A stretch of 53,887 nt of DNA from Patescibacteria group bacterium (GTDB lineage: Bacteria > Patescibacteriota > Patescibacteriia > Magasanikbacterales > UBA922), in assembly GCA_035290345.1 (NCBI GenBank), contig DATDUP010000006.1:1-53887 (forward strand). The letters are read 5' to 3'. Below are positions 17,673-33,331 of this stretch, piece after piece (the first letter of the stretch is position 1; every line of letters begins with the position of its first letter). The position numbers and the translations under genes are program-made. The notes below the pieces were generated by a model that saw only the letters and a program-made list of their open reading frames with translations, was not told the DNA's origin and ran no database searches.

Positions 17673-17686
17673 AAATCATTTAAAAT

Positions 17687-17716
17687 AAAGCCCCTTTCCG
17701 GGGCTTTATTTTTTTT
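17687..17716. terminator. bidirectional intrinsic terminator between convergent genes
   Basis: AAAGCCCC (17687-17694), loop tttcc, GGGGCTTT (17700-17707). T9 follows on the + strand and an A-run precedes it, which gives a T-run on the - strand. The hairpin overlaps the last codons of the GT2 gene. Confidence 0.7.
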
Positions 17717-18419
17717 TCAAAGAAGGTAATTCGTTATGGTATGGTCGACGACCGACACAAAGACAAAGAAAATTAAAAAAATAACGACCCAGATAACGAT
17801 TGAGACGATAGCGACGGCCAGAAACAAAACACTTTAAACTCATATCCAATTTTATCCGTCCCAACCTGGCCAATTTCCGGCACAAATCTGAATCTTCTCC
17901 ATAGCGAAGTTGAGGGTCAAAACCAGTAGTTTGCTGATAATCCTTTTTTCGAAAGGTCATATTGTTCCCCATGGGACCCACCTGCCCCCCTGACACCACT
18001 CGGGCAAAAAACCAGAGAAGATAATGAATAAAAAAACGAATAAAATTAATACCAATCCCGGTATCATAATATATCATCTGCCCCCCCAGGCAAACCAATT
18101 GTTTATCCTGCGCAAACCTTTTCTCTACCTCTACCAAATAATTGGCTGGCAAACGGGTATCAGCGTCAATCTGCAAAATATAATCACCTTGGGCAATTTC
18201 TGTCCCAGTCCTTCTGGCCCAACCCACTCCCAGTCTTTTTTCTGAAACCACCCATACCCCCAATTCTTGCGCTAAAGACAACGTCCTATCCTGAGAATTA
18301 TTATCAACCACCACAATCTCATAGTCGTCGGCCGGGTAATTTAAATGCTTGGCCGCCTGAATACAGGCCACAATATATTCCTCTTCATCATGGGCGGGAA
18401 TAATTATAGAAAACTTCAT
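17706..18419 (-). CDS. family 2 glycosyltransferase
   Basis: FSIIIPAHDEEEYIVACIQAA...YEIVVVDNNSQDRT...QIDADT (DxD-type), a typical GT-A/GT2 N-terminus. Confidence 0.85.
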   Translation of the reverse strand: MKFSIIIPAHDEEEYIVACIQAAKHLNYPADDYEIVVVDNNSQDRTLSLAQELGVWVVSEKRLGVGWARRTGTEIAQGDYILQIDADTRLPANYLVEVEKRFAQDKQLVCLGGQMIYYDTGIGINFIRFFIHYLLWFFARVVSGGQVGPMGNNMTFRKKDYQQTTGFDPQLRYGEDSDLCRKLARLGRIKLDMSLKCFVSGRRYRLNRYLGRYFFNFLCLCVGRRPYHNELPSLKKK

Positions 18420-18474
18420 AATCTCTTAAGTATGCCAAAACAAAAACGCGCCGGCAAGCCGGTGCGTCATTTTT

Positions 18475-19014
18475 CTACCAAGTATTTGCTTCACCACCAT
18501 CCCAGAATTGCCCGAGACCGGTCGACTCTCCCAAGGGGTCGGGATTGTTAAAATCTTTCATATTTTCATCTACCTTGACTTCTACCCCAGCATAGAAAGG
18601 CTTATCAATTCCGCCTCCACCAGTAGTGGCTTCGCGCAAATATCGTTCCACAAACAAAGAAATACTAAAGGCCGAAAGGGTAATCAAAACACCGAGCACT
18701 GCATATTTGATTATTGTCTTTGCCTTATCCACCTGTTCGCTTTCTCCCCGCGAGGTCATAATCAAAAATCCGGCATAGACTGTATAGGCAGTAAAAATCA
18801 CCCCTATCGTCCCTAAAAGTATCTGTACTATATAGGTAGCTACCAACCGTGGGTCGCGGGCCTGCCCAAGATTGGCCCCCTGTTCTCCCGCTGCTGCTTT
18901 CAACTGAGTCTGCAATTCCGTTTTATAATCCGCTCCGACTTCTAAAACCGAAAAGGCTAAGCTACAAAAAACAGCTAAACAGAGAATAATAATGAATGAA
19001 AATTTTTTTTTCAT
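18475..19014 (-). CDS. VirB2/TrbC-like (T4SS-pilin-type) membrane hairpin protein, paralogue 1, Cys-free C-terminal tail
   Basis: Signal peptide MKKKFSFIIILCLAVFC, then hydrophobic helix, loop YAGFLIMTSRGESEQVDKAKTII, and second helix. I prefer the internal ATG at 19014. Confidence 0.7.
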   Translation of the reverse strand: MKKKFSFIIILCLAVFCSLAFSVLEVGADYKTELQTQLKAAAGEQGANLGQARDPRLVATYIVQILLGTIGVIFTAYTVYAGFLIMTSRGESEQVDKAKTIIKYAVLGVLITLSAFSISLFVERYLREATTGGGGIDKPFYAGVEVKVDENMKDFNNPDPLGESTGLGQFWDGGEANTW

Positions 19015-19015
19015 G

Positions 19016-19426
19016 TTATTTCGGTACCACCCCACCCTCGACTACGGCCTTAGAGATCCGTTCCAGGATGAAATAAGTGATTGAATATGAAACAAAAATA
19101 ACTGCCAGACCGATTACCGCGGCTCGAATAGTATTTCGCCCCTTGCTCAATCTTTCTTCTTCACCATGGGAAGTGATATACCAATAGCTCCCAAAAACAA
19201 TCAAAACAATGAACACTGATCCGACGGTTGCTAGGGCGAGGTAAATCAACCAGGCAATCGTCAGACGCGGATCTCCTGGTTGCTCCAGTTCCGCTCCTTT
19301 AGCTCCTGCTCCGATTTGTTGGTTCACCTGACCAACTAAATTAACCGCCTCCACCGGACTACTGGCCAATATGAAAAAAGACAAAAAGAAGAAGAGGGGA
19401 AAAACAAAACTGAAAATTTTTTTCAT
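19016..19426 (-). CDS. VirB2/TrbC-like membrane hairpin protein, paralogue 2 (short form)
   Basis: Signal peptide, DPRL motif shared with paralogue 1, loop FGSYWYITSHGEEERLSKGRNTI, and second helix. Confidence 0.65.
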   Translation of the reverse strand: MKKIFSFVFPLFFFLSFFILASSPVEAVNLVGQVNQQIGAGAKGAELEQPGDPRLTIAWLIYLALATVGSVFIVLIVFGSYWYITSHGEEERLSKGRNTIRAAVIGLAVIFVSYSITYFILERISKAVVEGGVVPK

Positions 19427-19428
19427 AA

Positions 19429-20064
19429 TTACTGACATATGGATGCTTTCACACTGGCCTGATATTCACACTTGTCTGCATCATAACCACCCTTAACGCA
19501 AATCTCCGTACATTCTTCGGCCGAAGCCACATCTAAGTAATATTGGGAGTCAAAGCAACCTTTTTTCCAGCCAGCTTCATCTGCTTCCCCCTCATCTTCA
19601 TCCGCCACCACCCAATCGCCCCAGCAACGTCGGCAGCAACTTACCATACTCTCATCCTCTTGCGTCTTGGGATTTACTTCCTCACTGCTTTCTAAAATGT
19701 TAGGGACAATAAAGGTGGTAACACTGTAAGCTCCCACCGTAAGAATCACTCCAATCACGCTGCCGGTAATTATCTTCTGAGCTTTTTTTACCTGATCCTC
19801 TTCCCCCCGGGCCGTCATCCAAAGATAGCCAGCATAAACCATCAACAAAAGAAAAATCGCCCCGACAAATGACAAGGCAATGGCGATGATATAACCAATG
19901 GTAACAGAAAAGGTCGTCTCGTTAGTTGAACCAGAATAACCAGCTTCAGTAGCAGCCATTTTCGTATCTTTCAAACCAAAATTCAAAGCTAAGGCCGGCT
20001 CAACACTTAGCCACACCAACAAGAGTAAACTAGCTAACAAACCGATTTTCCATTTTATTGACAT
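19429..20064 (-). CDS. VirB2/TrbC-like hairpin protein, paralogue 3, with acidic 8-Cys C-terminal module
   Basis: YAGYLWMTARGEEDQVKKAQKII between two helices. The C-terminus is SCCRRCWGD...GCFDS...ECTEICVKG...KCEY...SICQ. Confidence 0.75.
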   Translation of the reverse strand: MSIKWKIGLLASLLLLVWLSVEPALALNFGLKDTKMAATEAGYSGSTNETTFSVTIGYIIAIALSFVGAIFLLLMVYAGYLWMTARGEEDQVKKAQKIITGSVIGVILTVGAYSVTTFIVPNILESSEEVNPKTQEDESMVSCCRRCWGDWVVADEDEGEADEAGWKKGCFDSQYYLDVASAEECTEICVKGGYDADKCEYQASVKASICQ

Positions 20065-20067
20065 AAT

Positions 20068-20631
20068 TTATTCTTCGGCTTTTGGTTCCACACATTCTTT
20101 GGGATCAATTTTCCCTAAATATTCTCCCCCCTCATCAATACATTGCTTTTTATCCCATTGATATCGATCACAGGTGACTGACCAGGCACTTTCACATTTT
20201 TTACAACAATCTACCCCCAAATCGCCGGTCTCTGTTGTCCCTTCAGTAGAAGCTGTCCGACTCAAAATTCGAGGCACCACAAAATCTGTAATACCATAGG
20301 CTGAAACCACTATCACCAAACCGACCACCGCGGTTATCACTATCTTTTGCGATTTCTCTATATCGTTTTCTTCCCCCCGGGCCGTCATCCAAAGATAACC
20401 GGCATAGACCATCAATCCAAGAAATATCACCCCTAACATAGAAAGACCAGCTTTAACCGCCACTCCCACTGTTCTGGCTAAAGACTGCTCATTTGTTCCG
20501 CTATCATATTCAGCTGTCTTCGCTGCTTTTTCTACTTTACTAAAGCCAATATCCAAAGCCAAGACCTGGTTGGCTAACAAGATACTACTGAAAATTACTA
20601 GAATAACGGCACTGAGCTTAAACCTTCTCAT
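20068..20631 (-). CDS. VirB2/TrbC-like hairpin protein, paralogue 4, with 6-Cys C-terminal module
   Basis: YAGYLWMTARGEENDIEKSQKIV. The C-terminus is DCCKKCESAWSVTCDRYQWDKKQCIDEGG...KECVE. Confidence 0.75.
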   Translation of the reverse strand: MRRFKLSAVILVIFSSILLANQVLALDIGFSKVEKAAKTAEYDSGTNEQSLARTVGVAVKAGLSMLGVIFLGLMVYAGYLWMTARGEENDIEKSQKIVITAVVGLVIVVSAYGITDFVVPRILSRTASTEGTTETGDLGVDCCKKCESAWSVTCDRYQWDKKQCIDEGGEYLGKIDPKECVEPKAEE

Positions 20632-20637
20632 AACAAA

Positions 20638-21231
20638 TTATTTCTTGGGAGCACAACAAATAATATTATCTTTAGTCGCATTGTCGCCGGCCATACATTT
20701 CCCCACCTTACATATTTCAGGTGACTGTTCGCAATCGCTCAGTTGGGCTTCTAAATCTTCCTCATCTTCATCAAATGGATTGTCGTGTGTGGCATTACAG
20801 GTGTTGATATCTACACAACTCCAGCCGGGATTTTGTTTTTCACAATCATTTTGAAGAACCGTTTCTTGACTGCCGGATTGAAAACGCTTGGCCACAAGTA
20901 CGGTGATGGCATAGGCCGAGGCCACAATCACAAACCCAATCATGGTAGAAATAATTATCTTCTGGGCTTTCTCCACCTGACTTTCTTCCCCCCGGGCCGT
21001 CATCCAAAGATAGCCAGCATAAATCATCAGGATCATAAAAATTAAGCCCACAATACTCAAGGCAGCGTTAATTGCCTGACCGACCACTACATCCACACTA
21101 CTATAAGTCGTCGCTCCTGCCTTATCAGCAACAGCCGTTGCCTTGGTGCCAGCATCCTTCAATCCGGCGGCGGTTACTGAACTAAAAACCATTATTCCCA
21201 CAATTATTATTATAAAAACAAATTTCTTCAT
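20638..21231 (-). CDS. VirB2/TrbC-like hairpin protein, paralogue 5, with 8-Cys C-terminal module
   Basis: YAGYLWMTARGEESQVEKAQKII. The C-terminus is NDCEKQNPGWSCVDINTCNATH...DCEQSPEICKVGKCMAG...IICCAPKK. Confidence 0.75.
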   Translation of the reverse strand: MKKFVFIIIIVGIMVFSSVTAAGLKDAGTKATAVADKAGATTYSSVDVVVGQAINAALSIVGLIFMILMIYAGYLWMTARGEESQVEKAQKIIISTMIGFVIVASAYAITVLVAKRFQSGSQETVLQNDCEKQNPGWSCVDINTCNATHDNPFDEDEEDLEAQLSDCEQSPEICKVGKCMAGDNATKDNIICCAPKK

Positions 21232-21254
21232 AATTATTTGTTTGATTAGTCAAT

Positions 21255-21998
21255 TTAATCTTTCCCGATCAAATATTCCCAGCCAGACTGACTATCCTCT
21301 TCTTGCATTTCTGCCGCAGCCTCGCATTTACCGCTACTGGCCACCCCTTCCACAAATTCATAATAAGCCTGACCACACAATTCGTCCTGGTCATCGCAAT
21401 TATACCCGATTTCTTCGCAATCTGCTGCTGTAGTGATCAATCCCCGCCAATGAATAGGATGAATCTCTGATGCGGCCGCGATCGGGTCGCCAATTAAAGG
21501 AATCTCTTCTATTCCTTCCATAGGAAGATTACCAGGAACCCGATAAGCTTCCAAACAACATCCAGTTCCTTCTTCTCCGGCCACTCCAGTACTCTCCCCA
21601 GACAATGCTCCGGCTTTCTGGCCCTCCACCAGACGCGTCATAACAAAATTGGTGATGGCATAAGAGGAAACCGTGAGCACTAATCCAATACTGGCTGCAA
21701 TAATCGTCCCCCGAGCTTTATCTATTTGTTCTTCCTTGCCTTGAGCAGTAAACCACAAAAATCCACCATAAAATACCAAAACAAAGAAAATTAACCCCAC
21801 CATTCCGAGAGCCAGCTTAGCGGCCTTACCTCCGGCCTGTTCAACTGTCATTTCTTCTGCTCCAATTCCCACGTTTGCCTTAGCCGCAAAACTCTCCGCT
21901 TGAGTAGCCTTATATGCCGCTTCTGCTGGCACCACTAAAAACAAGAATAAGAATCCAGTTATCAATCCTCCTGTTATTATTGCTCTACTTCCAATCAC
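21255..21998 (-). CDS. VirB2/TrbC-like hairpin protein, paralogue 6, with 6-Cys C-terminal module
   Basis: YGGFLWFTAQGKEEQIDKARGTI. The C-terminus is GCCLEAY...ADCEEIGYNCDDQDELCGQ...GKCEAA. Confidence 0.7.
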   Translation of the reverse strand: MIGSRAIITGGLITGFLFLFLVVPAEAAYKATQAESFAAKANVGIGAEEMTVEQAGGKAAKLALGMVGLIFFVLVFYGGFLWFTAQGKEEQIDKARGTIIAASIGLVLTVSSYAITNFVMTRLVEGQKAGALSGESTGVAGEEGTGCCLEAYRVPGNLPMEGIEEIPLIGDPIAAASEIHPIHWRGLITTAADCEEIGYNCDDQDELCGQAYYEFVEGVASSGKCEAAAEMQEEDSQSGWEYLIGKD

Positions 21999-22599
21999 AA
22001 TGGTTAGCTTTATTCTTACAAAGTTGTTCAGTTAAACCACCACAAAAGGCGTTGGGGTTGGTCTTATAAGCGTCTTTTATCTTACACTCTACCGGATCGT
22101 TCGTCACCAGTTCACAGTACCCGGAATTAGTACAATCTTCGACCACATCAATTGCCGCACAAAACGACCCCATAGTTGTAGCCGCCGTTGCTTTTGCTAC
22201 ACAACCTGTCGCCACTTGGCTACTGCCGGTATTTGGTCCGCCACTACTTTGAATAGAACTAAAAACAAATTTAGTGATGGCGTAAGAGGACAGGACAATG
22301 ATGATGCCGATAATAGCGGCAATAATCGTTTGCAAAGCCTTTTTTTCCTCTTCCGCGCTTCCTTTAGCCAACATCCAAGTAATACCCCCATAGATCATCA
22401 GGCCAAAAAATAAAACACCGACCAAAGAAAGACCGGTTCCCAAAACTTTACCAATCAAGGTCGGCAGATCCGAACCACCATAGGCTGTCAAACCCGCTTC
22501 ACCAGCGGTCTCGGCCAAGCCATATTGAGCCAAAGTCACACCTGGAATCAAAACTGTAATAACTAGAATCAAGAAAAAAAACTTTCCTAGTCTGCTCAT
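21985..22599 (-). CDS. VirB2/TrbC-like hairpin protein, paralogue 7, with 8-Cys C-terminal module
   Basis: YGGITWMLAKGSAEEEKKALQTI. The C-terminus is GCVAK...FCAAIDVVEDCTNSGYCELV...ECKIK...FCGGLTEQLCKNKANHCDWK. It overlaps paralogue 6 by 14 nt. Confidence 0.7.
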   Translation of the reverse strand: MSRLGKFFFLILVITVLIPGVTLAQYGLAETAGEAGLTAYGGSDLPTLIGKVLGTGLSLVGVLFFGLMIYGGITWMLAKGSAEEEKKALQTIIAAIIGIIIVLSSYAITKFVFSSIQSSGGPNTGSSQVATGCVAKATAATTMGSFCAAIDVVEDCTNSGYCELVTNDPVECKIKDAYKTNPNAFCGGLTEQLCKNKANHCDWK

Positions 22600-22602
22600 A
22601 GC

Positions 22603-23019
22603 TTAAAAATTATCAAAGTTATAATATTCATCCCCCACTGTCGCCTTATACAACTGAGTCATGACAAACCGGGTAATGGCGTAAGCAGCAAAAATAATCA
22701 ATAAACCGATAACTGCCGCTATCAAAGTTTTCTTGGCCGAACCAATGGCGTCTTCATTCCCCGCCGAAGTCATCCACCTAAAACCAGCATAGAGAATGAT
22801 AACCGTACAAATCGTACCCAATAAACCCAAGGCCACAATGATTATTTGGGCAACTGTAAAACGCACATCTTCGCTTCCCAAACCGGTCGCCTTACCATAT
22901 TCCAACCCTAAATAAGGACCGGTACTCTGAGCCGAAGCCAACATCGGTAAACCAAAAACTAAAAACAAAGAAAAAACAACCGCTAACAAAGAAGGTAGTG
23001 CTATTTTTTTTGTGGACAT
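22603..23019 (-). CDS. VirB2/TrbC-like pilin-type protein, paralogue 8 (minimal 138-aa form)
   Basis: Signal peptide ...LPMLASA, then helix, YAGFRWMTSAGNEDAIGSAKKTL, helix and a short tail. AAGGAGGG lies upstream. Confidence 0.75.
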   Translation of the reverse strand: MSTKKIALPSLLAVVFSLFLVFGLPMLASAQSTGPYLGLEYGKATGLGSEDVRFTVAQIIIVALGLLGTICTVIILYAGFRWMTSAGNEDAIGSAKKTLIAAVIGLLIIFAAYAITRFVMTQLYKATVGDEYYNFDNF

Positions 23020-23164
23020 AGTTTAAAACAATAAATACTGGCTACCCTCCTTTTTCTTACCACTATTTACTGCTCATGAGCAGTACCCTGCCCCGGATCA
23101 TGATACGGGGCAGGGTGTGATTGTTACTAAAACTGTTTTAGTAGCCATCGCTACTGGCAAATGA
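23020..23164 (-). promoter_or_regulatory. highly structured intergenic spacer (four consecutive hairpins/palindromes) between paralogues 9 and 8
   Basis: Perfect 18-nt palindrome tactgctcatgagcagta (23068-23085). 10-bp GC stem ccctgccccg/cggggcaggg (23086-23115). tactaaaac/gttttagta (23125-23143). gtagc/gctac (23141-23154). Confidence 0.5.
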
Positions 23165-23593
23165 TTAGAGTTCTTCTGTCGCGTAATCTTCACCAGTGGT
23201 GGCCAAATACAATTGCTCAAGTACGAACCGGGCGATAGCGTAAGCGGTTAGAATAATACCCAAACCGATTACTCCAGCAATGATCAATTTCTTCGCTTCG
23301 GCAACCTTATCTTCATTACCGCCGGCTGTCATCCATTTGAAACCACCAGCCAAGACGATCACAACGGCGACGATACCCAACATACTCAACGCTACGTTGA
23401 TAATATTGGAAATCATGTCGCGCAGATCCTGATTGCCTAAACCGGTTTTCTTGCCATAAACCAAACCGAAGTTTATCGTACCAGTTGCGTCCTCTGCGGA
23501 CACCAACATTGGAGCCACAAAAGTTGCCAATATCAAAGATAGAACCACGGTTACCACTACCTTATTTTTTGCCAAATTTATTAACCAAGACAT
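23165..23593 (-). CDS. VirB2/TrbC-like pilin-type protein, paralogue 9 (minimal 142-aa form, candidate major subunit)
   Basis: Signal peptide ...PMLVSA, LAGGFKWMTAGGNEDKVAEAKKLI between two helices. It has a strong SD AAGGGGGTGA and is the only member flanked by intergenic spacers on both sides. Confidence 0.75.
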   Translation of the reverse strand: MSWLINLAKNKVVVTVVLSLILATFVAPMLVSAEDATGTINFGLVYGKKTGLGNQDLRDMISNIINVALSMLGIVAVVIVLAGGFKWMTAGGNEDKVAEAKKLIIAGVIGLGIILTAYAIARFVLEQLYLATTGEDYATEEL

Positions 23594-23641
23594 GTTCTCA
23601 CCCCCTTTCTGTTTAGGGATAAATAAACTAAATAATTAGTT

Positions 23642-24601
23642 TTATTTTGCTTTTAAACTCCCGGTATCTATCGGAGTTAGCTGTATTCCCTCCAAACTCT
23701 TTCCGCCGGTTGCCCCCAATCCTTGAATCACGAGCTGTAGTATACCATAGGCAGCAAAAATGATAAACAGTCCAATCACTGCGCTCACCATCGCTTTCTG
23801 TCCCTTCTTAAATTTTTCTTCATCACCAGCAGCCGTGATGAACATAAAGCCGCCATAGACAAACACCACCAAGGTCACCGAACCGATCAACCCCATGGCA
23901 TAAGCTATTATCTTTCCTAACAAAACTCGCATATCCAATAGGCCGGTCGGTTTGGCCACTGTCCCACCCAAAGGATTAATCAAGCTCACCACGGTTTGGC
24001 TGACATCTGAAGCTGCACCCGCCGGTGTTGTCCCAGCATCAACCCCCCCTGAAGCTGGTGGGGTATCGGCACATGCCCCCTCTTTCCATTCGCAAGCCTT
24101 ACTACTGGCAATCAATGTCTTACACAATTTTTGACAATCAGAAGCTTCATCCCCAGTGCAATCCCAACTAGTTAATTTGGCGCTGGTCAAGGTCTTCTCA
24201 AAAGCAGCTGGACAATCCAAATTAATATGTTCTTTGACAAAAAGACGAACATAATCAGGGCTGCCAGCACAAGCATCACACTTAGTTGGGTCAGTCAGAC
24301 AGTCGTCCATTTGGTTCGGTTCTTTGCAGAATATTAGGGAAGCGGACCCGTCTTTTATTTTACCATCCAAAAATCCATTCCACAGCACACCAAATACACC
24401 CGAGCCCATACAATCATCTTTCTGAGCAAAAACCAAATCACCAGCCGCTGTCTTAGCCACATCTCCTTCTTCGATTGGTCCTGATTCACTTCCTGTCCCA
24501 TAAAAACAAACCGGAGATACTGTTTCTGCCCGGACGATTAGTGGCAACAACAAAAATGACCCTAGCAGTAGAAATGGTAAAACAAATCTTCGCTTTTCCA
24601 T
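23642..24601 (-). CDS. 12-Cys N-terminal ectodomain fused to a C-terminal VirB2/TrbC-like hairpin, paralogue 10
   Basis: Signal peptide MEKRRFVLPFLLLGSFLLLPLIVRA and a Cys-rich region of about 190 aa. Then LGKIIAYAMGLIGSVTLVVFVYGGFMFITAAGDEEKFKKGQKAM and a second helix. I prefer the internal ATG at 24601. Confidence 0.7.
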   Translation of the reverse strand: MEKRRFVLPFLLLGSFLLLPLIVRAETVSPVCFYGTGSESGPIEEGDVAKTAAGDLVFAQKDDCMGSGVFGVLWNGFLDGKIKDGSASLIFCKEPNQMDDCLTDPTKCDACAGSPDYVRLFVKEHINLDCPAAFEKTLTSAKLTSWDCTGDEASDCQKLCKTLIASSKACEWKEGACADTPPASGGVDAGTTPAGAASDVSQTVVSLINPLGGTVAKPTGLLDMRVLLGKIIAYAMGLIGSVTLVVFVYGGFMFITAAGDEEKFKKGQKAMVSAVIGLFIIFAAYGILQLVIQGLGATGGKSLEGIQLTPIDTGSLKAK

Positions 24602-24611
24602 ACACTTATAA

Positions 24612-25532: not shown

Positions 25533-25534
25533 AT

Positions 25535-26914
25535 TTATAGGGTTTGTTGAATTAATTGGGCCGCGTATTTCACTAAAGCGGCATCCCGATCCAATTTTTT
25601 CTTATCCGTACCACCAAAGGGCTGAAGGTAACTATGTAACATATCCTTGATCGCCTTTTCAGCCGCGACCGAATCCCGACCCCGATACCAATTTTTAGAT
25701 TGCAAGAGATATTCAGTAAACGGTGCTAGCACCAAATCCTGGCGTTGCTCTTCCACCTGAGAACGGACTGGGCTGGGTTGTCTAACCGCTTCGGTATATT
25801 TTTTGATATTCTCCTTACTAGTGATGAACTTGATAAAATCCCAGGCTTCATTAGCGTTCTTACTCTTACGCGAGACTGTCTCCACCCAATAATTAGCAAT
25901 ATTTACCGGCGCGCTACTATTGAGTTGGGGTATGGGCAAAATTTCCACATCCATTTGTGGCGCTCGCGCTTTTATCCGCTGGTAATCATAAGAGAAACCA
26001 AAGTAAAAAGTCAGTTTACCTCGAGCAAAAGCCTGAAGAGCGTCCTCATTAGACTCATTCCAACAATAAACTTCTTTGGTGGGCTGGGCAAAATCTGTAT
26101 AAAACCTTAAGGCGGCCAAGGTAGCATTATTCTCTTGTGGTTTATCCAAACCAGCGGTAAAGGCCACCCGATTACCCTCGGTCATTTTCACCCCACTCTG
26201 CAACATGAATAAAGACAAAAGATCAAAAGCCCGAGGAATATTATTCCCTGTTCCCAAAGCCACCCCGGATTGGACAACATTTCCCTGAGCGTCAAACTTG
26301 GTGGTCGCCTTGACTGCTTCCATAAAATCTTCCCAAGTCTGGGGTGGTTCAGGAATGTTAGCTTGATCCAAAAGTTCTTTATTGTAATACAGAGCTAAAG
26401 TATCGACAGACAGAGGAAGACCAATAATTTGACCGTTAACAATGGCGTCTTCGTAGACAGTAGTAATAAAATTAGACTTAATCGCCGCTGGTGTCGGCAT
26501 TTTTACTTCGATCGGAGTCACGATGGTTTCTTTCGCATATTTCCCCTTGATCTGCACATCTGCTACTTTGACACTGGCTGGCATGTCCGCTAGTCGATTA
26601 AGATATTTACGGATATCTTTCACATTTACCGAGATAATATCCGGCGACACATCGTCAGCCAAGGCATTCAAAAGTAAGGTGTCAAATTCTTCATAACCCA
26701 CCTTACGAATATCAACGGTCACATACGGCCGCATCTTTTTATATTCTTCTGCCATTTGTTCCAAGATGCCGATATCATTGGTGATCGTCCAGTATTTCAA
26801 AGTTACTGGTTTGATTGCGGCCTGTTCTTCGGCTGACAATCCTTTACAACCAAAGCCACTGATTAACAAAACAACTGCGGCCAGAAGGGAAAATAATTGT
26901 TTGGTTTTTTTCAT
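25535..26914 (-). CDS. ABC-transporter extracellular solute-binding lipoprotein (sugar-type, family 1-like)
   Basis: MKKTKQLFSLLAAVVLLISGFGC (lipobox-like) followed by a typical SBP sequence of about 440 aa. I prefer the internal ATG at 26914. No permease or ATPase gene is adjacent. Confidence 0.7.
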   Translation of the reverse strand: MKKTKQLFSLLAAVVLLISGFGCKGLSAEEQAAIKPVTLKYWTITNDIGILEQMAEEYKKMRPYVTVDIRKVGYEEFDTLLLNALADDVSPDIISVNVKDIRKYLNRLADMPASVKVADVQIKGKYAKETIVTPIEVKMPTPAAIKSNFITTVYEDAIVNGQIIGLPLSVDTLALYYNKELLDQANIPEPPQTWEDFMEAVKATTKFDAQGNVVQSGVALGTGNNIPRAFDLLSLFMLQSGVKMTEGNRVAFTAGLDKPQENNATLAALRFYTDFAQPTKEVYCWNESNEDALQAFARGKLTFYFGFSYDYQRIKARAPQMDVEILPIPQLNSSAPVNIANYWVETVSRKSKNANEAWDFIKFITSKENIKKYTEAVRQPSPVRSQVEEQRQDLVLAPFTEYLLQSKNWYRGRDSVAAEKAIKDMLHSYLQPFGGTDKKKLDRDAALVKYAAQLIQQTL

Positions 26915-26921
26915 AGTCTTA

Positions 26922-27809
26922 TTATTTTTTGAAAGCTTCAAAGACAAAATTTACCACGACATAACTAGACAGGACCACAATCACCCCTAGACCGGTCTGC
27001 ACTAAAATTTTTTGGGCATGAGCTCTCTTATCTGGGCTACCGCCGGAAAACATCCAAATGATTCCGGCATAGACAAACATGACTAGAGCAATACTTCCTA
27101 ATAATTGTAAAATAGTCTTTATAATCTTCCCTAAAAGACCTTGCAAGGTCACTTTACCGCCGATTTGATTCAATTTACCCGCTCCTACTCCCAAAGAAAA
27201 CGGAGCAGAAGTAATGATCGTTGGCCCACCAGCGTCCCCAGCCTCATTACTCACTGGCGTCCCTCCATCCACATGCCAATTTACAGAAAAATTTTCACAA
27301 AGATTCTCCGTCCCTCCGGGTACTTCTATATCGGTAATCAGGGGCTTTAATCTGCTTTCACATTCTGCCGTCCACCAGTAAACAAAATCCTGGGCCTCTT
27401 TTTGCATTATTCCCCCGCACCCCGCCTCCTTACTTCCCTCTCGGACATAACATTGATAGCCAGTATACCCGTCACTGGCTGCCCGTAAACTGCATTGACT
27501 TACCAAAGTAGATGTTTCTTCTCCCTCGTTCAGATTGGGCATGCACACCCATTTGATATCCACCCCGATGATCAGGGCGGCTCTTACCTCGTCATTACTC
27601 TTACCTTCTTTCTGCATTTGTTCCACTTCTTGAATATTTTCCAAAAGCTTCTCTTTGGCCGTCTCAATCGGCAGTTCCGAACACACACAGTACTTTTCGG
27701 CTTGCACAAAAACAGGAAACAAAACAAAACCCAGGGCCAGAAACAAACTGGCCGCTCCTAAAAAAATCCATTTATTTAAAAGCTTCGAAAACAAAGGTGA
27801 CAATAACAT
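26922..27809 (-). CDS. Cys-rich N-terminal ectodomain fused to a C-terminal VirB2/TrbC-like hairpin, paralogue 12
   Basis: Signal peptide, then CVCSELPIETAKEK...VCMPN...QCSLRAA...YQCYVREGSKEAGCGG...AECES. Then YAGIIWMFSGGSPDKRAHAQKIL and a helix. The start overlaps paralogue 13 by 38 nt and is uncertain. Confidence 0.65.
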   Translation of the reverse strand: MLLSPLFSKLLNKWIFLGAASLFLALGFVLFPVFVQAEKYCVCSELPIETAKEKLLENIQEVEQMQKEGKSNDEVRAALIIGVDIKWVCMPNLNEGEETSTLVSQCSLRAASDGYTGYQCYVREGSKEAGCGGIMQKEAQDFVYWWTAECESRLKPLITDIEVPGGTENLCENFSVNWHVDGGTPVSNEAGDAGGPTIITSAPFSLGVGAGKLNQIGGKVTLQGLLGKIIKTILQLLGSIALVMFVYAGIIWMFSGGSPDKRAHAQKILVQTGLGVIVVLSSYVVVNFVFEAFKK

Positions 27810-28626: not shown

Positions 28627-28633
28627 AAGATAA

Positions 28634-29479
28634 TTATTTCTTTCTGTTCCTTACCCGTTTTTGGTAAAAATGCTTAGTGGCTCGCATTAATTTTTCATCA
28701 TCGCCAGTGTCTAAAAACTTACCTCGATAAATATAAGCGTAGAATTCACCCTTCTGAGCCAGAGCATTAGCCGCATCCGCCATCCAGATCTCACCATCTT
28801 TGCCTTTTTGCTGTTGTTCTAGCGCTGACCAGATCTCCTTGGTAAAAACATAACGCATCCCTCCTACCACCAGATGATCCGGAGAAGCATTTTCTAGGGC
28901 TGGTTTTTCCACAAATTTCTCTACCCGGTAAGTCCGAGGGGCAACTAGACGACCATATACATTGCCATACCGAACCAAGTCCTCTTTATTCCTCAATTGC
29001 TGCACCCCAATTACCGGGGCGTGATATTTTTTATAAACTCGCAACAGTTGTTTGATGGCTGGAGTAGCCGAATCAATAATACTATCGCCCTCTGAACAGA
29101 CAAACGGATCGTCGCCAATCAATTCCTTGGCCATTAGTAGAGCATGGCCATTCCCCAAAGCTTCATTCTGGTAAGCATAGCTGATTTTCACTTTTCCCAA
29201 TAAGTCCACCAAGTGTTCAATCCGATGATACTTGTCTTTGGCTCTTAATGTTTCCTCATATTCCGGATTGCGGCTAAAATAATCCTCTATTAGTCTTTTT
29301 TCCTTATTTATTATAATAACCACTTCCTCCATTCCACTCCCCACTAATTCTTCTACCGTATACTGAAGAACCGGCTTATCCAAAACCGGCAACATTTCTT
29401 TGGGTAACACTTTAGTGACCGGCAAAAAACGCGTCCCCAAACCGGCCGCTAAAATTACTCCTTTGCGTATCTTCGACAT
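28634..29479 (-). CDS. galU: UTP--glucose-1-phosphate uridylyltransferase
   Basis: GVILAAGLGTRFLPVTKVLPKEMLPVLDKPVLQYTVEE is the canonical GalU N-terminus. Confidence 0.85.
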   Translation of the reverse strand: MSKIRKGVILAAGLGTRFLPVTKVLPKEMLPVLDKPVLQYTVEELVGSGMEEVVIIINKEKRLIEDYFSRNPEYEETLRAKDKYHRIEHLVDLLGKVKISYAYQNEALGNGHALLMAKELIGDDPFVCSEGDSIIDSATPAIKQLLRVYKKYHAPVIGVQQLRNKEDLVRYGNVYGRLVAPRTYRVEKFVEKPALENASPDHLVVGGMRYVFTKEIWSALEQQQKGKDGEIWMADAANALAQKGEFYAYIYRGKFLDTGDDEKLMRATKHFYQKRVRNRKK

Positions 29480-29537
29480 AACTAATTAACTGTTAATTGT
29501 GTATTCATTATAACAAGAAAACTCACTTTACCCAAGC

Positions 29538-30923
29538 CTAAAGAATCTCTTCCCAGCTGATTAATTCATAAGAATTACCTGTCGGAAAACCCGGGGGCGG
29601 ATAATACTTCAGATTACCATCATAACTGTGGTTGGTATTTTCGTAACCAGAAATCACATGCCCCCAACCGCTCACATATTTCCAGCCGCCGCCGGCAAAA
29701 GAAATCTGCGAACCAAAAATAGTCAGGGTGTCCTTAAGGTCACCGTCGTAGTAGGGACGATGCACTGCTCCGTATTGAGAAAGCATAGCAGCATTTATTT
29801 CCATAATATCCGGCGTCTCGTAAGGCACAATCACATTGCCCTGGGCCATCAGACCAATTACATCATCCGCTGCTTTTTCCTTGTAAGTCAGGTTGTTATT
29901 CACAATAATCGTCATGTAAGTTTCCTCTTGAACCGGAAACCGGCCGGCCGCAATGGTTATTCGTCCGTCCACCACCCCCTCAACCCAGACGTGGTCATCG
30001 CTAAAAATCATACCATTGGCCGGTAAATTATCAGTGGAAACAAAATCCTCGGTTTTGATGTCAAAACAATTTTGATCATAAACCCACCATTTTCCATGCT
30101 TTTCCCCCTGGCCGTTATAACAATCTCGGTTGTTCACCACATACAGATCATAAGTACCATCTTCGGCAAATACCAGATGCCAGCCTTCTTTTCCCGAAGT
30201 ATACAGATGCAAACCACCATCCTCATCCGCCGCCTCCATTATCTTAGACATGTCCCCACTCACCAAGTCAAAATCAATAGCCGGCACTGGATAGACCCAA
30301 AAAGATTTAGGTCCACCGCCTCCCCACACCCCGTCATGCCACTGGGTTAAATACTGATAACGATCCTTAGCGCTCTTTACCCAAGAGTCAGTCGTCCCAT
30401 CAAAGCGGATACCACCGTTGGAATGAACTGTGCCGTGTACTTCTGTGGTATAACTAAAATTCATGTTGGCATTAGACAAAAAAGTGTAATCCGCCCAAGA
30501 CGGGAATCCCACTCGTACTTGGATAGTGCGAGTAGTCGAGGGATTAACCACAGTCCAACCTGTAGAACGAACCACTACTACCGTACTCCCTGACAAAGGC
30601 GGATCAATATCTAAAGAAAAATACCCAATCAAATTCCCGTCTTTGTCTAAATACTCATGTTCATACGGCCCGGCTGATTCTTCCCCCTGGCCATCATAAT
30701 AATCAGTGGGGTTGTGGGCCAAATGCCAACGATAATAGTTGATACCTGCTTCGGCGATATGAAAGGCGATGTCTCGATCATATTTCCGGTTGGAAGCCTT
30801 GCTTTCAAACAAGGCATAACTAGTAATACCCAGGGTAATCATAGTAAAGGCGACCGTTCCAAAAACCAAAGCCATGACCAAAATGTTGCCTCGATTTTTC
30901 TTATTAGACACCAACCAACACAT
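29538..30923 (-). CDS. PilX-like / pilus-assembly minor component with N-terminal membrane anchor
   Basis: RGNILVMALVFGTVAFTMITLGITSYALF resembles a PilX_N-type anchor. A beta-rich domain of about 400 aa follows. It is translationally coupled to the pseudopilin upstream. Confidence 0.5.
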   Translation of the reverse strand: MCWLVSNKKNRGNILVMALVFGTVAFTMITLGITSYALFESKASNRKYDRDIAFHIAEAGINYYRWHLAHNPTDYYDGQGEESAGPYEHEYLDKDGNLIGYFSLDIDPPLSGSTVVVVRSTGWTVVNPSTTRTIQVRVGFPSWADYTFLSNANMNFSYTTEVHGTVHSNGGIRFDGTTDSWVKSAKDRYQYLTQWHDGVWGGGGPKSFWVYPVPAIDFDLVSGDMSKIMEAADEDGGLHLYTSGKEGWHLVFAEDGTYDLYVVNNRDCYNGQGEKHGKWWVYDQNCFDIKTEDFVSTDNLPANGMIFSDDHVWVEGVVDGRITIAAGRFPVQEETYMTIIVNNNLTYKEKAADDVIGLMAQGNVIVPYETPDIMEINAAMLSQYGAVHRPYYDGDLKDTLTIFGSQISFAGGGWKYVSGWGHVISGYENTNHSYDGNLKYYPPPGFPTGNSYELISWEEIL

Positions 30924-30924
30924 A

Positions 30925-31533
30925 TCAGGTTTGTTTAAGATTTCTAATCTGTACGAGAGTCTCCACTTGCAAAGGAACTGGTGTTTCGGTCGGATCTTTT
31001 TCTAGTTCTAGATGCAAACGCACTGACCGCACATTCGCCGCCTCAATCGGTTCAATCAGGGCGCCTTCACTACCAGTGTAATCTTCATCATAATATAGAA
31101 AAACTGGTTCATCTTTGGTTAAATTAACCACATCACTCGCTAAAATCTTCTCTGTTTCTTCTCCCTCATACGCCAGAGGGGTACCACTAGGTTTGATCAC
31201 TCCCATTTTAAAATCTGTACCAGCTAAATAAAAACGGACGCGTTCTCGATAAGCATCACCATCCACATTAGCATAAAGGACCAGGGTAGTTGAGGAGGCT
31301 GATTCCAAAGCAAAAGAACCAATATTAGAACTTTCCGCCCGACGAACGATGTCAACCACTTTTTGCAGAGCCTGCCGACCCTCGTTTTGGGTCTTTAGTT
31401 GCTCCCAGATAACGGCATTATAACGAAAAGAATAAATTACCAATGCAGTCAAACCGGAAACCAATAAAGAAACAATCGCAATAACAATAATTACCTCTAA
31501 AAGAGAGAACCCCAATTGTGATCTTTTCCTCAT
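30925..31533 (-). CDS. type IV pilin-like pseudopilin (prepilin-type N-terminal cleavage/methylation signal)
   Basis: MRKRSQLG|FSLLEVIIVIAIVSLLVSG is a class III signal peptide (G-F-x-L-L-E followed by a hydrophobic helix). Confidence 0.8.
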   Translation of the reverse strand: MRKRSQLGFSLLEVIIVIAIVSLLVSGLTALVIYSFRYNAVIWEQLKTQNEGRQALQKVVDIVRRAESSNIGSFALESASSTTLVLYANVDGDAYRERVRFYLAGTDFKMGVIKPSGTPLAYEGEETEKILASDVVNLTKDEPVFLYYDEDYTGSEGALIEPIEAANVRSVRLHLELEKDPTETPVPLQVETLVQIRNLKQT

Positions 31534-31534
31534 A

Positions 31535-33331
31535 TTAGGCTGGGGTAAGATTTACTGACAATAAAGTATTCCCTTCCACGGTGACGGTCGTAGCATATTC
31601 AGAATAGCCAACGCCAGTCACTATCAAAGAATACTCCTGGTTGCTCAAATTACCGAAATAGGCCTGGCCCGGGGGTGTGCAGGCATTAGTATAAGTTAGG
31701 GCCAGACTAGATATAGTGGGGGTGTAGGTCGTGGAAGCGGTGGATAAAAATAATTTATAACGAAAGTATTGATCACCGTCGTGAATTTCCGAAATAATAT
31801 TGTTAGTGGAATCGTAATAAGTAGATCCAGTGCCATCAGGACCCAGATAATTCCAAAACTCCGGGATCGTGGATGTGGCCGTAGCCACCTGCCAACGGAC
31901 CGCATCTGTTCCCACAGCTTCTGGCTGAGCCAAAGGTTCCCAAATTAAAGAACCATAGTTGGCTTCTGTACCTAAATCAAAAACCGAAGATTCAAGCTGA
32001 CCACCAGATACATAACCAGGCCACAATTCACTTAACTGAATATTCCCGGGATCAGCCATCACTTCGACTCGACCATCATCTGACCAGTACTTGGTTAAAT
32101 CCTCGGCCAATAGCTGTCCTGTCCCACCAGACCAATCGGTCTGGCTCTTGTGACCAACGCCAGTCAATTGACTAGAAGAATAGCCAATAGCTGACAAAAC
32201 AGCGGTGGCATTAGGTACGGCCTGACCAGTAATACTGTCCGTCACATGTACTAACAAAGAATGGCTGGTATTAGGTCCCAAAATTAGTTGCACCGGCTGA
32301 TCCACTCCTGGTAAAACCGCCACTGGTAATTGCGGAATGGTCCCCAACAAATCGTAATTATCACTGTCCAGACTATAAATGTCCCAAATCAAATTCAGCC
32401 GACTATACAGACCACCCCCGTCAGTATTCACAATTTCGTTAACTTTATAGATGTCCGGTTCTGTGCCAGACAATTTGGTTCCAATCAAACTGACCGGAAC
32501 ACTTGATTCAGATACACACAGGTTGTTAACGGTTGAGAGCAACAAAGAAGAAACTAAATCAATATTGAAACCAATTTCCGTCACCTCCTGGGCCACTACT
32601 GAGGCAGGTAATTTTGTGGGATGAGGATTTTCTTCCGAAGGAATAATCGTTTGGTCAGTGGTAAAATCATCTCCGTCTTTAGAAACACTGACTTGATAGG
32701 CTCCGATACCTTCGCCCAAATCTACCAGCCGCAACATTCCTTCGTTATCAGTCGTATCCCATAAATCAATCGCCGGATCAGTAGAGGTAGCCACCACATG
32801 CACATCCGCGCCCCCAACTGGTTGTCCCTGGGCATTCAGAACATTGATAAACAAGGCGCCATGATCCAGGCTCCCTTCCAAATTTTTCGGGGAAACAAAA
32901 GTGGTGGCAATCAAGGACTGCTTTTGACCACAAGTATCACAAATTACGGCTACCTCTACCAATTTATAATCAGCCGGAGCTATATCATTCGGAACCCCAC
33001 CGATTACACCGTCAAATTCATCGTCAATATTGCGGACAGTGCGAGTCAATGTAAAATCAATACCATTCCGAGTCGTGGTAGCGATGTGAGTCAAGACACC
33101 GCTTGGGCTACCATTAATAATTCCAACATCAACAAAACGTAAGTTACGAATTATTTCCAATTCTTCATTGAGAATCCCTGTTTCCACCACTCGCAACCGC
33201 GACTGATAAACTATTTTAAAAACAAACTGCAGGCCACCATAGATCCCGGCGGCAAAAATTACAAAAACCGCAATTGCTATCACTACTTCTAATAACGCAA
33301 AACCTCTGCTGTTTACAACTGCTTTTTTCAT
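31535..33331 (-). CDS. giant (598 aa) type IV pilin-like protein with prepilin-type signal
   Basis: MKKAVVNSRG|FALLEVVIAIAVFVIFAAG. Beta-rich segments resemble carboxypeptidase-regulatory/Ig-like folds (GGADVHVVATSTDP...NEGMLRL; SLIVTGVGYSEYATTVTVEG). Confidence 0.75.
   Translation of the reverse strand: MKKAVVNSRGFALLEVVIAIAVFVIFAAGIYGGLQFVFKIVYQSRLRVVETGILNEELEIIRNLRFVDVGIINGSPSGVLTHIATTTRNGIDFTLTRTVRNIDDEFDGVIGGVPNDIAPADYKLVEVAVICDTCGQKQSLIATTFVSPKNLEGSLDHGALFINVLNAQGQPVGGADVHVVATSTDPAIDLWDTTDNEGMLRLVDLGEGIGAYQVSVSKDGDDFTTDQTIIPSEENPHPTKLPASVVAQEVTEIGFNIDLVSSLLLSTVNNLCVSESSVPVSLIGTKLSGTEPDIYKVNEIVNTDGGGLYSRLNLIWDIYSLDSDNYDLLGTIPQLPVAVLPGVDQPVQLILGPNTSHSLLVHVTDSITGQAVPNATAVLSAIGYSSSQLTGVGHKSQTDWSGGTGQLLAEDLTKYWSDDGRVEVMADPGNIQLSELWPGYVSGGQLESSVFDLGTEANYGSLIWEPLAQPEAVGTDAVRWQVATATSTIPEFWNYLGPDGTGSTYYDSTNNIISEIHDGDQYFRYKLFLSTASTTYTPTISSLALTYTNACTPPGQAYFGNLSNQEYSLIVTGVGYSEYATTVTVEGNTLLSVNLTPA

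Follow-up and report, generated by a model that had tools for sequence, protein, structure and literature searches.

Cysteine-rich domains on VirB2-like pilins encoded by a conserved tandem gene array in Patescibacteria

The window analysed here, a stretch of 53,887 nucleotides from an uncultured, ultra-small patescibacterium, is essentially the whole of its 54,781-bp contig and contains 13 tandem copies of a conjugation-type pilin gene (P1 to P13; Table 1). Nine of the 13 paralogues carry cysteine-rich outer domains ("heads") of 45 to 200 aa, five at the C-terminus (P3 to P7) and four on the N-terminal side of the hairpin (P10 to P13). Positions 19429 to 22599 correspond exactly to five minus-strand open reading frames, P3 to P7, and each of these encodes a Sec signal peptide, a conserved two-helix PF18895 hairpin, a linker of 19 to 28 aa, and a cysteine-containing tail. 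The headless P8 and P9 are the best conserved paralogues across species (the P9 core is 80% identical to its orthologue in locus L004) and are candidate major subunits. Homology between the N-terminal domains of P12 and P13 is evident from 24% identity across 184 aa (E 1.5e-11). The last array position is occupied in most related loci by a protein with a cysteine-free tail of about 48 aa.

Table 1 Genes and features of the pilin array and its surroundings
Feature	Coordinates	Strand	Description
Terminator-like hairpin	17682-17712		bidirectional, after the GT2 gene
GT2 glycosyltransferase	17706..18419	-	downstream end of the gene block; present in 22/79 related loci
P1 and P2	18475..19438	-	last two array genes; P1 with 61-aa Cys-free acidic tail, P2 bare
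P3	19429..20064	-	signal peptide, PF18895 hairpin (aa 54-119), 8-Cys acidic C-tail (tail DNA 19432-19707)
P4	20068..20631	-	signal peptide, hairpin, 6-Cys C-tail (tail DNA 20071-20277)
P5	20638..21231	-	signal peptide, hairpin, 8-Cys C-tail with CC at the end (tail DNA 20641-20898)
P6	21255..21998	-	signal peptide, hairpin, 6-Cys tail (tail DNA 21258-21641)
P7	21985..22599	-	signal peptide, hairpin, 8-Cys tail (tail DNA 21988-22263)
P8 and P9	22603..23593	-	bare pilins of 138 and 142 aa, without head
P10 and P11	23642..25532	-	Cys-rich domain (12 and 16 Cys) between signal peptide and hairpin
Solute-binding lipoprotein (SBP), sugar-type	25535..26947	-	inside the array; Pfam SBP_bac_8/1, lipobox SGFGC
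P12 and P13	26922..28626	-	pilins with 8-Cys N-terminal domains of ~180 aa
Upstream neighbours	28634..33331	-	sugar-nucleotidyl transferase, PilX-like protein, two type IV pilin-like (N_methyl) proteins

In a Pfam profile search, PF18895 (T4SS_pilin) matches all 13 paralogues. The matches for P3 to P7 have E values of 5e-8 to 7e-5, and four of the five are above the gathering score (27.3 to 33.4 bits for P4 to P7 against a cut-off of 26.6). The P3 match (23.4 bits, E 6.6e-5) falls under this cut-off, and its hairpin aligns to that of P5 with an E value of 1e-27. P8 and P9 score 36 and 38.9 bits. P8 additionally reaches 25.3 bits against TrbC (PF04956), short of the cut-off of 27.9, and the mycoplasma ICE pilin-like family NF045849 is likewise matched only below threshold. 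Hydropathy segments in 13/13 paralogues follow the same plan, in which a Sec signal peptide with an AxA-type site precedes two hydrophobic helices. These helices are joined by a short polar loop, and the AlphaFold2 (AF2) models of P3 (helices 45-85 and 89-128) and P7 show a two-helix hairpin. The assignment of the scaffold to the VirB2/TrbC type, as proposed in an earlier note on this DNA, is supported. Searches of PDB sequences with a bare pilin, the P11 N-terminal domain, and a hairpin profile returned no match at all, solved pilin structures included. The N-methylation motif of type IV pilins (class III signal peptide) is absent from P1 to P13 and was found only in the neighbouring genes at 30925-31533 and 31535-33331. 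Since a cleavable Sec signal peptide precedes the two transmembrane helices, the tails must, on this predicted topology, lie outside the cytoplasm, as the note had expected. Every head in the window either precedes helix 1 or follows helix 2. [quoted passage not shown]

Cysteine counts after the hairpin in P3 to P7 are 8, 6, 8, 6, and 8, exactly as first reported, and the peptides quoted in that report are all present; the hairpins of these five proteins contain no cysteine. Counted from where the Pfam match to the hairpin stops, the tails are 92, 69, 86, 128, and 92 aa long and hold 36 cysteines in 467 residues (7.7%), a tenfold enrichment over the 34 other proteins of the window (0.82%). All nine cysteine-bearing ectodomains in the window have even counts when P10 is read from Met19, the start given to this gene in the public annotation of the source contig; the longer open reading frame adds one cysteine before the signal peptide. 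The same parity holds in the arrays of 79 related species, where 194 of 197 cysteine-containing C-terminal tails have even and three have odd numbers (binomial p about 1e-53) and where the hairpin is cysteine-free in 675 of 721 paralogues. Chance does not account for this parity. No disulfide oxidoreductase gene was detected in the window; MdbA-like thiol-disulfide oxidoreductases adjoining VKOR are reported to be enriched in CPR genomes (bioRxiv 10.1101/335083). Asp and Glu are indeed abundant in the tails of P3 to P6, as first described (20% to 24% D+E, net charge -5 to -20); the P7 tail, with 9.8% and a net charge of -2, does not fit that description.

The five tails differ in cysteine arrangement and predicted structure. 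The P4 tail has the pattern CCxxC...C...C...GxxxG...EC, and the P6 tail is the longest and most acidic (net charge -20). The P7 tail consists of two tandem 4-Cys modules, C-x13-C-x8-C-x5-C-E-L and C-x13-C-x7-C-x6-C-D-W, which are modelled confidently by AF2 (pLDDT 75-89) as a strand-helix-helix-strand unit repeated at 133-165 and 171-203, with each cysteine at the equivalent structural position in both repeats. The P3 tail model has strands at 141-146, 177-179, and 199-204 and a helix at 182-191 (pLDDT about 86). At E<=1, Pfam searches with the tails and N-terminal domains gave only one weak and unrelated match (DUF5981 to the P7 tail, E 0.044). Foldseek searches of the P3 and P7 models, which include the hairpin, found nothing in the PDB at E<=0.001, a search that very small domains could escape, and the P7 model had no match at this threshold in BFVD; only non-significant hairpin matches were returned, such as 8dfu at E 3.4. 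Neither Pfam nor Foldseek, used in this way, related the tails to knottin, defensin, or EGF-like folds.

Within the array, mean pairwise identity among P3 to P7 is 49% for the hairpins and 16% for the tails. In nine of the ten pairwise comparisons the tails do not outscore shuffled sequence; P3 and P4, however, share a linker and a CCxxC start and align with 31% identity over 70 aa (z = 7.6 versus shuffles), so that the claim of complete divergence holds for all pairs but this one. Between two related species (L006 and L020), the hairpins are 86% to 98% identical and the cysteine tails 29% to 79%, with cysteine numbers unchanged, confirming that the tails are the variable part. At three positions the tails are only 29% to 49% identical while the hairpins are 97% to 98%, and in one case the whole head seems to have been exchanged. 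The corresponding dN values are 0.038 for hairpins and 0.39 for tails, that is, the heads diverge about ten times faster with their cysteine number kept. This pair was used for dN/dS because the genomes nearest to the window are only ~60% identical in flanking proteins, which precludes the calculation for its own orthologues; a metagenome scan with the SBP reached 42% at best. The ratio in well-aligning tails, 0.13 to 0.16, is above that of the hairpin and, as judged from these alignments, is not positive selection. In a strain variant of P7, the signal peptide and hairpin show 100% identity, and three substitutions and one indel fall within the 20 residues that follow. The linker adjoining the hairpin is conserved, and an identical P3 protein was called on contigs from three metagenome samples.

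The architecture is widespread among the 79 related species compared, with arrays typically of 11 to 13 genes in conserved order and 0 to 9 heads per array, depending on the lineage. L006 and the window are collinear, and the cysteine series 8-6-8-6-8 is common to the window, L006, and L020. Cysteine numbers per position are identical across species even where the hairpins are only 56% to 77% identical. As free "hypervariable modules" the tails are misdescribed, since each array position keeps its own cysteine framework across species. The tails of P4, P6, and P7 belong to recognisable families. Relatives of the P4 tail occur in other genomes (P0008, E 5e-13; L006, E 5e-13; also P0005, P0012, and P0006), the P6 tail matches 10 of the 79 loci, and the P11 N-terminal domain matches 26. 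The P5 tail matches 3/79 loci at E<=1e-3 and had no relative among the protein-search hits. No significant phmmer match was obtained between the N-terminal head of P10 and the C-terminal heads of its positional orthologues; position and hairpin orthology are the basis on which a move of a domain between termini is suggested here. A profile of the P7-type double module had eight matches among 1.84 billion representative proteins, of which five were its seeds and three were non-pilin secreted proteins with tandem Cx7Cx5CxWx5C repeats (E 2.6e-6 to 8.6e-4), which could reflect convergence of cysteine patterns.

The genes accompanying the array are also conserved in part. The SBP gene is present in 52 of the 79 related arrays. 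When loci were retrieved by way of the SBP, 22 of 22 contained a pilin-type gene, and in the 21 whose layout was read this gene lies immediately downstream of the SBP gene. The NTP transferase is found in 46/79 loci and the PilX-like gene in 23/79, directly upstream in 11 of the 20 loci with enough flank. No VirB3, VirB4, VirB6, or VirD4 was found among the open reading frames of the 54-kb contig scanned against Pfam, and none of the 79 related loci has a conserved neighbour of VirB4 size within 10 kb of the array. The earlier note had missed this lack of a T4SS machinery gene on the contig, as well as the four N-terminally decorated paralogues and the wide distribution of the architecture. 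A TraF-like peptidase and a reverse transcriptase domain are absent from the window, and the gene block contains no ABC permease or ATPase gene. DNA repeats between paralogues fall in the hairpin-coding region (129-nt, 49-nt, and 29-nt families), the rest being matches of 18 to 25 nt, and none has a shufflon-like inverted-repeat arrangement. Programmed variation by a shufflon, a diversity-generating retroelement (DGR), or gene conversion was rejected, given the lack of suitable repeats and of a reverse transcriptase.

VirB2-like pilin arrays (PF18895/PF04956) are known in Patescibacteria (Quinonero-Coronel et al. 2025, PMC12102498), including the "Sec-secreted array" of TM7x (PMC7427843), and one is essential in Ca. 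Southlakia epibionticum, the one genetically tractable species (Wang et al. 2023, PMC10633639). They have been interpreted as adaptation to hosts. The array described here resembles them in being tandem and chromosomal, close to the replication origin, and composed of divergent pilins with signal peptide and hairpin. However, the published arrays comprise 2 to 11 small pilins, often near virB4, whereas this one has 13 genes and no virB4 within 54 kb, and it differs further in its nine genes with cysteine-rich domains, its embedded SBP lipoprotein, and its fixed gene order. Neither heads nor cysteines are mentioned in the three publications. While the arrays themselves are already published, the heads are not in the literature that could be searched, and the statement that no characterised VirB2 homologue carries such heads stands within it. 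TraA (F), TrbC (RP4), and VirB2 (Ti) share the signal peptide, the two-helix hairpin with short polar loop, and the exterior position of both termini (PMC5018250). Unlike P3 to P7, they are 60 to 75 aa when mature, have no extra domain, and are in some cases acetylated or cyclised. Anaplasma and Bartonella also have several divergent virB2 copies in a row, a presumed means of varying the exposed surface (as cited in PMC12102498), but these vary within the pilin, without appended disulfide domains, and sit in diderm T4SS loci with machinery genes. As an evolutionary analogy only, the heads recall conotoxins, defensins, and knottins, small acidic or charged secreted domains in which an even-cysteine framework is kept while the loops diverge rapidly. 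Pfam and Foldseek gave no sequence or fold match to these, the heads are tethered to a membrane or filament hairpin rather than free, and the predicted P7 module is not a knottin. Type IV pilus minor pilins and tip adhesins such as PilV of the R64 shufflon likewise combine a constant pilin scaffold with a variable C-terminal part, which serves in partner recognition, and type IV pilin-like genes adjoin the present array. In contrast to R64 PilV, P3 to P7 lack the N-methylation motif, there is one complete gene per variant, and neither inverted repeats nor recombinase-driven cassette switching was found.

We favour, at a probability of roughly 0.55, the reading that P3 to P7 are decorated VirB2/TrbC-type pilins, in which extracytoplasmic, disulfide-bonded, and fast-evolving heads are carried on a VirB2-like filament or membrane anchor and serve in host contact, a function that we infer. 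After export, the hairpin would insert with its short charged loop toward the cytoplasm and both termini outside the cell, where the head cysteines would pair into disulfides. The hairpins would polymerise into a VirB2-like filament consisting mostly of the bare paralogues P8, P9, and perhaps P2, with the head-bearing paralogues incorporated as minor or specialised subunits. Heads projecting from the filament surface would probably form the surface with which the cell contacts and recognises its host; its loops may change rapidly while the disulfide framework stays fixed. The adhesin or toxin-like role first proposed for the tails is likewise an inference. Several observations weigh against decorated pilins. 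T4SS assembly genes were not found on the contig, nor was a conserved neighbour of VirB4 size near the 79 related arrays, and the window is without a disulfide oxidoreductase. Accommodating a head of 7 to 13 kDa on every subunit of a VirB2-type helix may pose steric problems. That each head type is strictly tied to its position is easier to reconcile with fixed structural roles than with an interchangeable adhesin repertoire, and dN/dS in alignable tails is low. We know of no experimental observation of a filament of PF18895 proteins.

The hairpin could instead be a two-helix anchor that displays the cysteine-rich domains at the outer face of the cytoplasmic membrane without any filament, perhaps acting with the SBP lipoprotein in an envelope or uptake-associated complex. 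The missing T4SS machinery, the SBP embedded in most arrays and always accompanied by a pilin-type gene in the loci fetched through it, and a fixed gene order suggestive of a complex with defined subunit ratios are in line with this arrangement. We nevertheless regard it as unlikely, since linkers of 19 to 28 aa are too short to cross cell wall and S-layer, which makes the fast divergence hard to explain; in addition, the hairpin keeps VirB2/TrbC-like features, the bare paralogues look like major subunits, and the block lacks transporter permease and ATPase genes. The collinear one-to-one orthology, with its constant cysteine numbers on diverged hairpins, and the omega of 0.13 to 0.16, not above 1, would also fit a fixed structural or assembly role for each head (tip complex, base, or envelope-layer cap), the divergence then reflecting weak constraint on loops outside the disulfide framework and not host recognition. 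This seems less plausible still in view of the three positions with strongly diverged tails on nearly identical hairpins, the apparent replacement of one entire head, the clustering of strain-level changes in the tail, and the variation in head number between lineages.

The C-terminus of RP4 TrbC and of Ti VirB2 is trimmed before cyclisation. By this precedent, the tails might be cut off as pro-regions and set free as secreted, disulfide-rich peptides acting as toxin, bacteriocin, or signal, and small acidic even-Cys domains with variable loops do resemble secreted toxins. Release of the N-terminal domains of P10 to P13 would, however, need a second and different cleavage; no TraF-like peptidase is encoded in the window, and the conserved hairpin-side linker has no recognisable cleavage motif, making this an improbable account. 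Five tails in one window are a small sample, and read-through open reading frames with incidental cysteines might in principle produce such a picture. This origin by chance or annotation artefact is already refuted by the parity in 79 species, the tenfold enrichment, the confident model of the P7 tail, the conservation of tails in syntenic orthologues, and the repeated calls of an identical P3 protein.

More tentatively, decorated pilins point to an undescribed surface organelle, a "decorated conjugative-type pilus", that many Patescibacteria (Magasanikbacteria and relatives) might build from a fixed set of 11 to 13 VirB2-like subunits, several with globular disulfide-bonded heads on either terminus; its genes would lie beside those for a sugar-binding lipoprotein and for glycosylation enzymes, apart from any VirB4 gene. 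Such an organelle could be assembled by a different machine, or used for host attachment and nutrient capture rather than for DNA or protein transfer. Patescibacteria, which account for much of bacterial diversity, live attached to host cells. VirB2-like arrays have until now been treated as sets of plain small pilins. The fast-evolving disulfide-framed domains, their position-specific order, and the coupling to an SBP provide concrete candidates for the host-contact surface, with the prediction that head swaps should change host range, and would, if correct, extend what a VirB2-type pilin can carry. Decorated pilins may also account for the predominance of PF18895 proteins among the freshwater-specific structure clusters of large structure surveys (bioRxiv 10.1101/2025.04.23.650224).

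Five closely packed minus-strand genes, P3 to P7, lie within a tandem run of 13 VirB2-like pilin paralogues (P1 to P13), all of which match the Pfam family PF18895 'T4SS_pilin'; NCBIfam matches, to the 'pilin-like conjugal transfer protein' family of mycoplasma ICEs, are sub-threshold only. The earlier note described cysteine-rich tails C-terminal of the conserved two-helix hairpin in P3 to P7, and the translations bear out its counts of 8, 6, 8, 6, and 8 cysteines, with none in the hairpins. These tails are 69 to 128 aa long and contain 7.7% cysteine, compared with 0.82% in 34 other window proteins. Mean identity among the five is 49% in the hairpins versus 16% in the tails, and nine of ten tail pairs are no more alike than shuffled sequences. 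The exception to complete divergence is P3/P4, which have a common linker and CCxxC start, and the acidic character proposed for all five applies to P3 to P6 (20% to 24% Asp plus Glu) but not to P7 (9.8%). Since the cysteine counts and the divergence hold, the original observation stands with these two small corrections.

The feature is wider than first noted, as P10 to P13 are decorated as well, each with a cysteine-rich domain of about 180 to 220 aa. Thus 9 of the 13 paralogues carry heads, at either end of the hairpin. Sampling one genome per species yielded 79 related loci with 741 hairpin genes, and the P11 N-terminal domain was found again in 26 of these loci. The P12 and P13 N-terminal domains are mutually homologous (E 1.5e-11). 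A cysteine-rich head is absent from P1, P2, P8, and P9; P1 has an acidic, cysteine-free tail of 61 aa.

Coordinates and features of the pilin array, its flanks, and other window regions
Feature	Coordinates	Strand	Annotation	N-terminal head (signal peptide to hairpin)
Minus-strand locus compared across species	17706-33331			
P3-P7	19429-22599	-	five genes	
GT2 glycosyltransferase	17706-18419	-	array flank, same strand	
P1	18475-19035	-	PF18895; last array gene	
P2	19016-19438	-	PF18895	
P3	19429-20064	-	PF18895	
P4	20068-20631	-	PF18895	
P5	20638-21231	-	PF18895	
P6	21255-21998	-	PF18895	
P7	21985-22599	-	PF18895	
P8	22603-23019	-	PF18895; also TrbC/VirB2 match	
P9	23165-23593	-	PF18895	
P10	23642-24655	-	PF18895	12 Cys (counted from Met19, the start in the public gene call)
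P11	24612-25532	-	PF18895	16 Cys
Solute-binding protein	25535-26947	-	sole interruption of the 13-paralogue run; lipobox SGFGC	
P12	26922-27809	-	PF18895	8 Cys
P13	27772-28626	-	PF18895	8 Cys
Type IV pilin-like genes (two N_methyl plus PilX-like), sugar-nucleotidyl transferase	28634-33331	-	array flank	
GC-rich contig end	1-860			
Plus-frame ORF	79-957	+	without Pfam match	
Orphan protein, 600 aa	36707-38509	-	between rnpA and dnaA	
Radical SAM/SPASM enzyme	49272-50276	-	adjoins methyltransferase and GNAT genes	

All 13 paralogues begin with a Sec signal peptide of typical form, with an AxA-type site. Two hydrophobic helices come next, with about 12 polar residues in the loop between them, and the helical hairpin is present in AlphaFold models. 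With the signal peptide cleaved and an even number of spans, the mature N-terminus and C-terminus would both lie outside the cell, so that a head on either terminus would be extracytoplasmic and, were the pilins to form a filament, would sit on its surface. Of the database homologues of P3 and P7, 159 in all, 70 carry a tail of 35 aa or more; cysteine number is even in 66 of the 68 tails that contain cysteine, and the two odd ones both come from short contigs (774 and 1,555 bp). The proposal of even-numbered-cysteine modules also held in the 79 loci, where 231 C-terminal tails of at least 35 aa comprise 194 with an even non-zero count, 3 with an odd count, and 34 with none (p about 1e-53). N-terminal domains are likewise even in the overwhelming majority, and the hairpin is cysteine-free in 675 of 721 paralogues. 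Cysteine numbers thus rise and fall in pairs, and in exported parts only, the pattern predicted by disulfide bonding. Enrichment of MdbA-like thiol-disulfide oxidoreductases beside VKOR has been reported for CPR bacteria (bioRxiv 10.1101/335083); none of the MdbA-like type is encoded within the window.

AF2 models were built from alignments of 36 to 37 homologues. In P3 (mean pLDDT 71.7), the tail is predicted to contain strands at 141-146, 177-179, and 199-204 and a helix at 182-191 bearing a CxxxC motif (pLDDT about 86). The P7 model (mean 77.9; tail 75 to 89) has two equivalent strand-helix-helix-strand units, 133-165 and 171-203, each with four cysteines at the same structural positions. 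These units agree with a sequence repeat, C-x8-13-C-x7-10-C-x4-10-C-x-W, that is common in homologous tails, and seven of the eight cysteine columns are invariant when seven such tails (21% to 27% identity) are aligned. Neither Pfam searches of the tails nor Foldseek searches with the P3 and P7 models matched a known fold. Three secreted non-pilin proteins in the database (P0160, P0161, and P0162), one with a T9SS C-terminal sorting domain, consist of tandem CxxLxxxxCxxxxxCxWxxxxxC repeats similar to the P7-type module (E 2.6e-6 to 8.6e-4); this may be either homology or convergence.

The order of the locus is kept across dozens of species: type IV pilin-like genes, a PilX-like gene, a sugar-nucleotidyl transferase, at least one pilin with an N-terminal head, the solute-binding protein, a pilin with an N-terminal head, a pilin with an N- or C-terminal head, two bare pilins, two to five pilins with C-terminal heads, at least one bare pilin, a pilin with a cysteine-free tail of about 48 aa, and then GT2, Band7, and Xer genes. 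Many species share both gene order and head type per position (L004, L006, L014, L020, L034, L057, and others). Hairpin similarity places the window and locus L006 in collinear order (P12 to P1 corresponding to L006 genes 0 to 11), and the C-terminal series of 8, 6, 8, 6, and 8 cysteines is common to the window, L006, and L020, even though the window tails are only 20% to 35% identical to their L006 counterparts. In P10 the head is N-terminal; in L004, L006, and L034 the orthologues at that position have C-terminal heads, to which homology is not demonstrable by sequence. In most related arrays the last position, that of P1 in the window, likewise has a cysteine-free tail, there about 48 aa long, and the L006 and L020 tails are 85% identical; this is thus a conserved appendage, but of a different kind.

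The description of the modules as hypervariable is apt for their extreme diversity (75 ectodomains form 43 BLAST clusters) but not in the sense of free-floating cassettes, given the conserved locus architecture. Between L006 and L020 the hairpins are 86% to 98% identical (dN 0.038, dS 0.62), versus 29%, 38%, 49%, 67%, 72%, and 79% for six cysteine-rich tails (pooled dN 0.39), whose cysteine numbers are equal in the two loci. Loops are rewritten, the hairpin-proximal linker and cysteine framework are kept, and one head looks to have been replaced outright. Omega is 0.13 to 0.16 in the three well-aligning tails, in which dS is also raised, versus 0.04 to 0.07 in their hairpins; overall there is no signal of positive selection, a comparison reliable for these three tails, with the most diverged out of range. 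A strain variant of P7 is identical over the signal peptide and hairpin (121 aa) and has three differences and one indel in the next 20 residues, and the P3 protein is identical across three samples. Programmed variation was considered and left no sign: inter-paralogue DNA repeats lie in the hairpin-coding region, and other matches are short (18 to 25 nt).

In 52 of the 79 related loci, the array contains the gene for this sugar-type solute-binding lipoprotein. Conversely, when loci were retrieved by the solute-binding protein alone (26% to 42% identity to it; L090 to L111), all 22 had a PF18895-type hairpin gene, which is directly downstream on the same strand, at 0 to 390 nt, in all 21 examined for layout. 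In the window, the lipoprotein gene has neither an ABC permease nor an ATPase gene beside it, and a description of its coupling to pilin arrays was not found in the literature. The sugar-nucleotidyl transferase and GT2 genes are conserved neighbours in 46 and 22 of 79 loci, respectively, raising the possibility that the Ser/Thr/Gly-rich linkers are glycosylated. T4SS machinery genes are absent among the window ORFs scanned against Pfam, and related loci show no conserved one within 10 kb of the array.

The decorated-pilin feature is real, statistically solid, and widespread, and its domain architecture, parity, conservation pattern, and rate contrast are direct observations. The best-supported reading is of VirB2-type pilins bearing extracytoplasmic, disulfide-bonded, fast-evolving heads; from these data we infer polymerisation, surface exposure, and host binding. 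P8 and P9, which are bare and best conserved, would be the bulk subunits, and the decorated paralogues specialised subunits whose heads form an exposed surface, most plausibly serving host contact. There are three main alternatives. The heads may be displayed at the membrane without a filament, perhaps tied to the embedded sugar-binding lipoprotein; they may have fixed structural roles, with the loops loosely constrained; or they may be cleaved and released.

VirB2-like pilin arrays of Patescibacteria are known; the arrays described here add disulfide-rich heads and an unusual conserved locus. A survey placed such pilins near virB4 in 1,135 of 1,948 assemblies, in arrays of 2 to 11 genes with about 25% identity, and proposed host adaptation (PMC12102498); it is silent on extra domains, cysteines, and the solute-binding protein. 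In Ca. S. epibionticum such an array is essential (PMC10633639). No paper was found on pilins of Patescibacteria/CPR with cysteine-rich or disulfide domains in the present sense; Peregrinibacteria are reported to have large extracellular proteins rich in cysteine, but these (about 1,600 aa) are unrelated proteins. The arrays are of clear interest for T4SS and CPR biologists, with head function putative.

The window is chromosomal DNA from a groundwater-type metagenome, with dnaA, dnaN, PNPase, trigger factor, PBP1, LysRS, and two tRNAs, and its GC skew changes sign near 40 kb; its closest relatives carry the name Candidatus Magasanikbacteria. virB4 has been reported at the corresponding rnpA/dnaA neighbourhood in other Patescibacteria. 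The orphan protein there has an N-terminal hydrophobic segment and 10 cysteines, no match in Pfam or NCBIfam, and no ATPase signature. The first 860 nt or so of the window have a GC content of 59%, compared with about 44% elsewhere, and a minus-strand ORF that seems to run past the contig end; this stretch could have a foreign origin or mark a chimeric end of the assembly. The radical SAM/SPASM group, a possible peptide-modification cluster, has no connection with the array.
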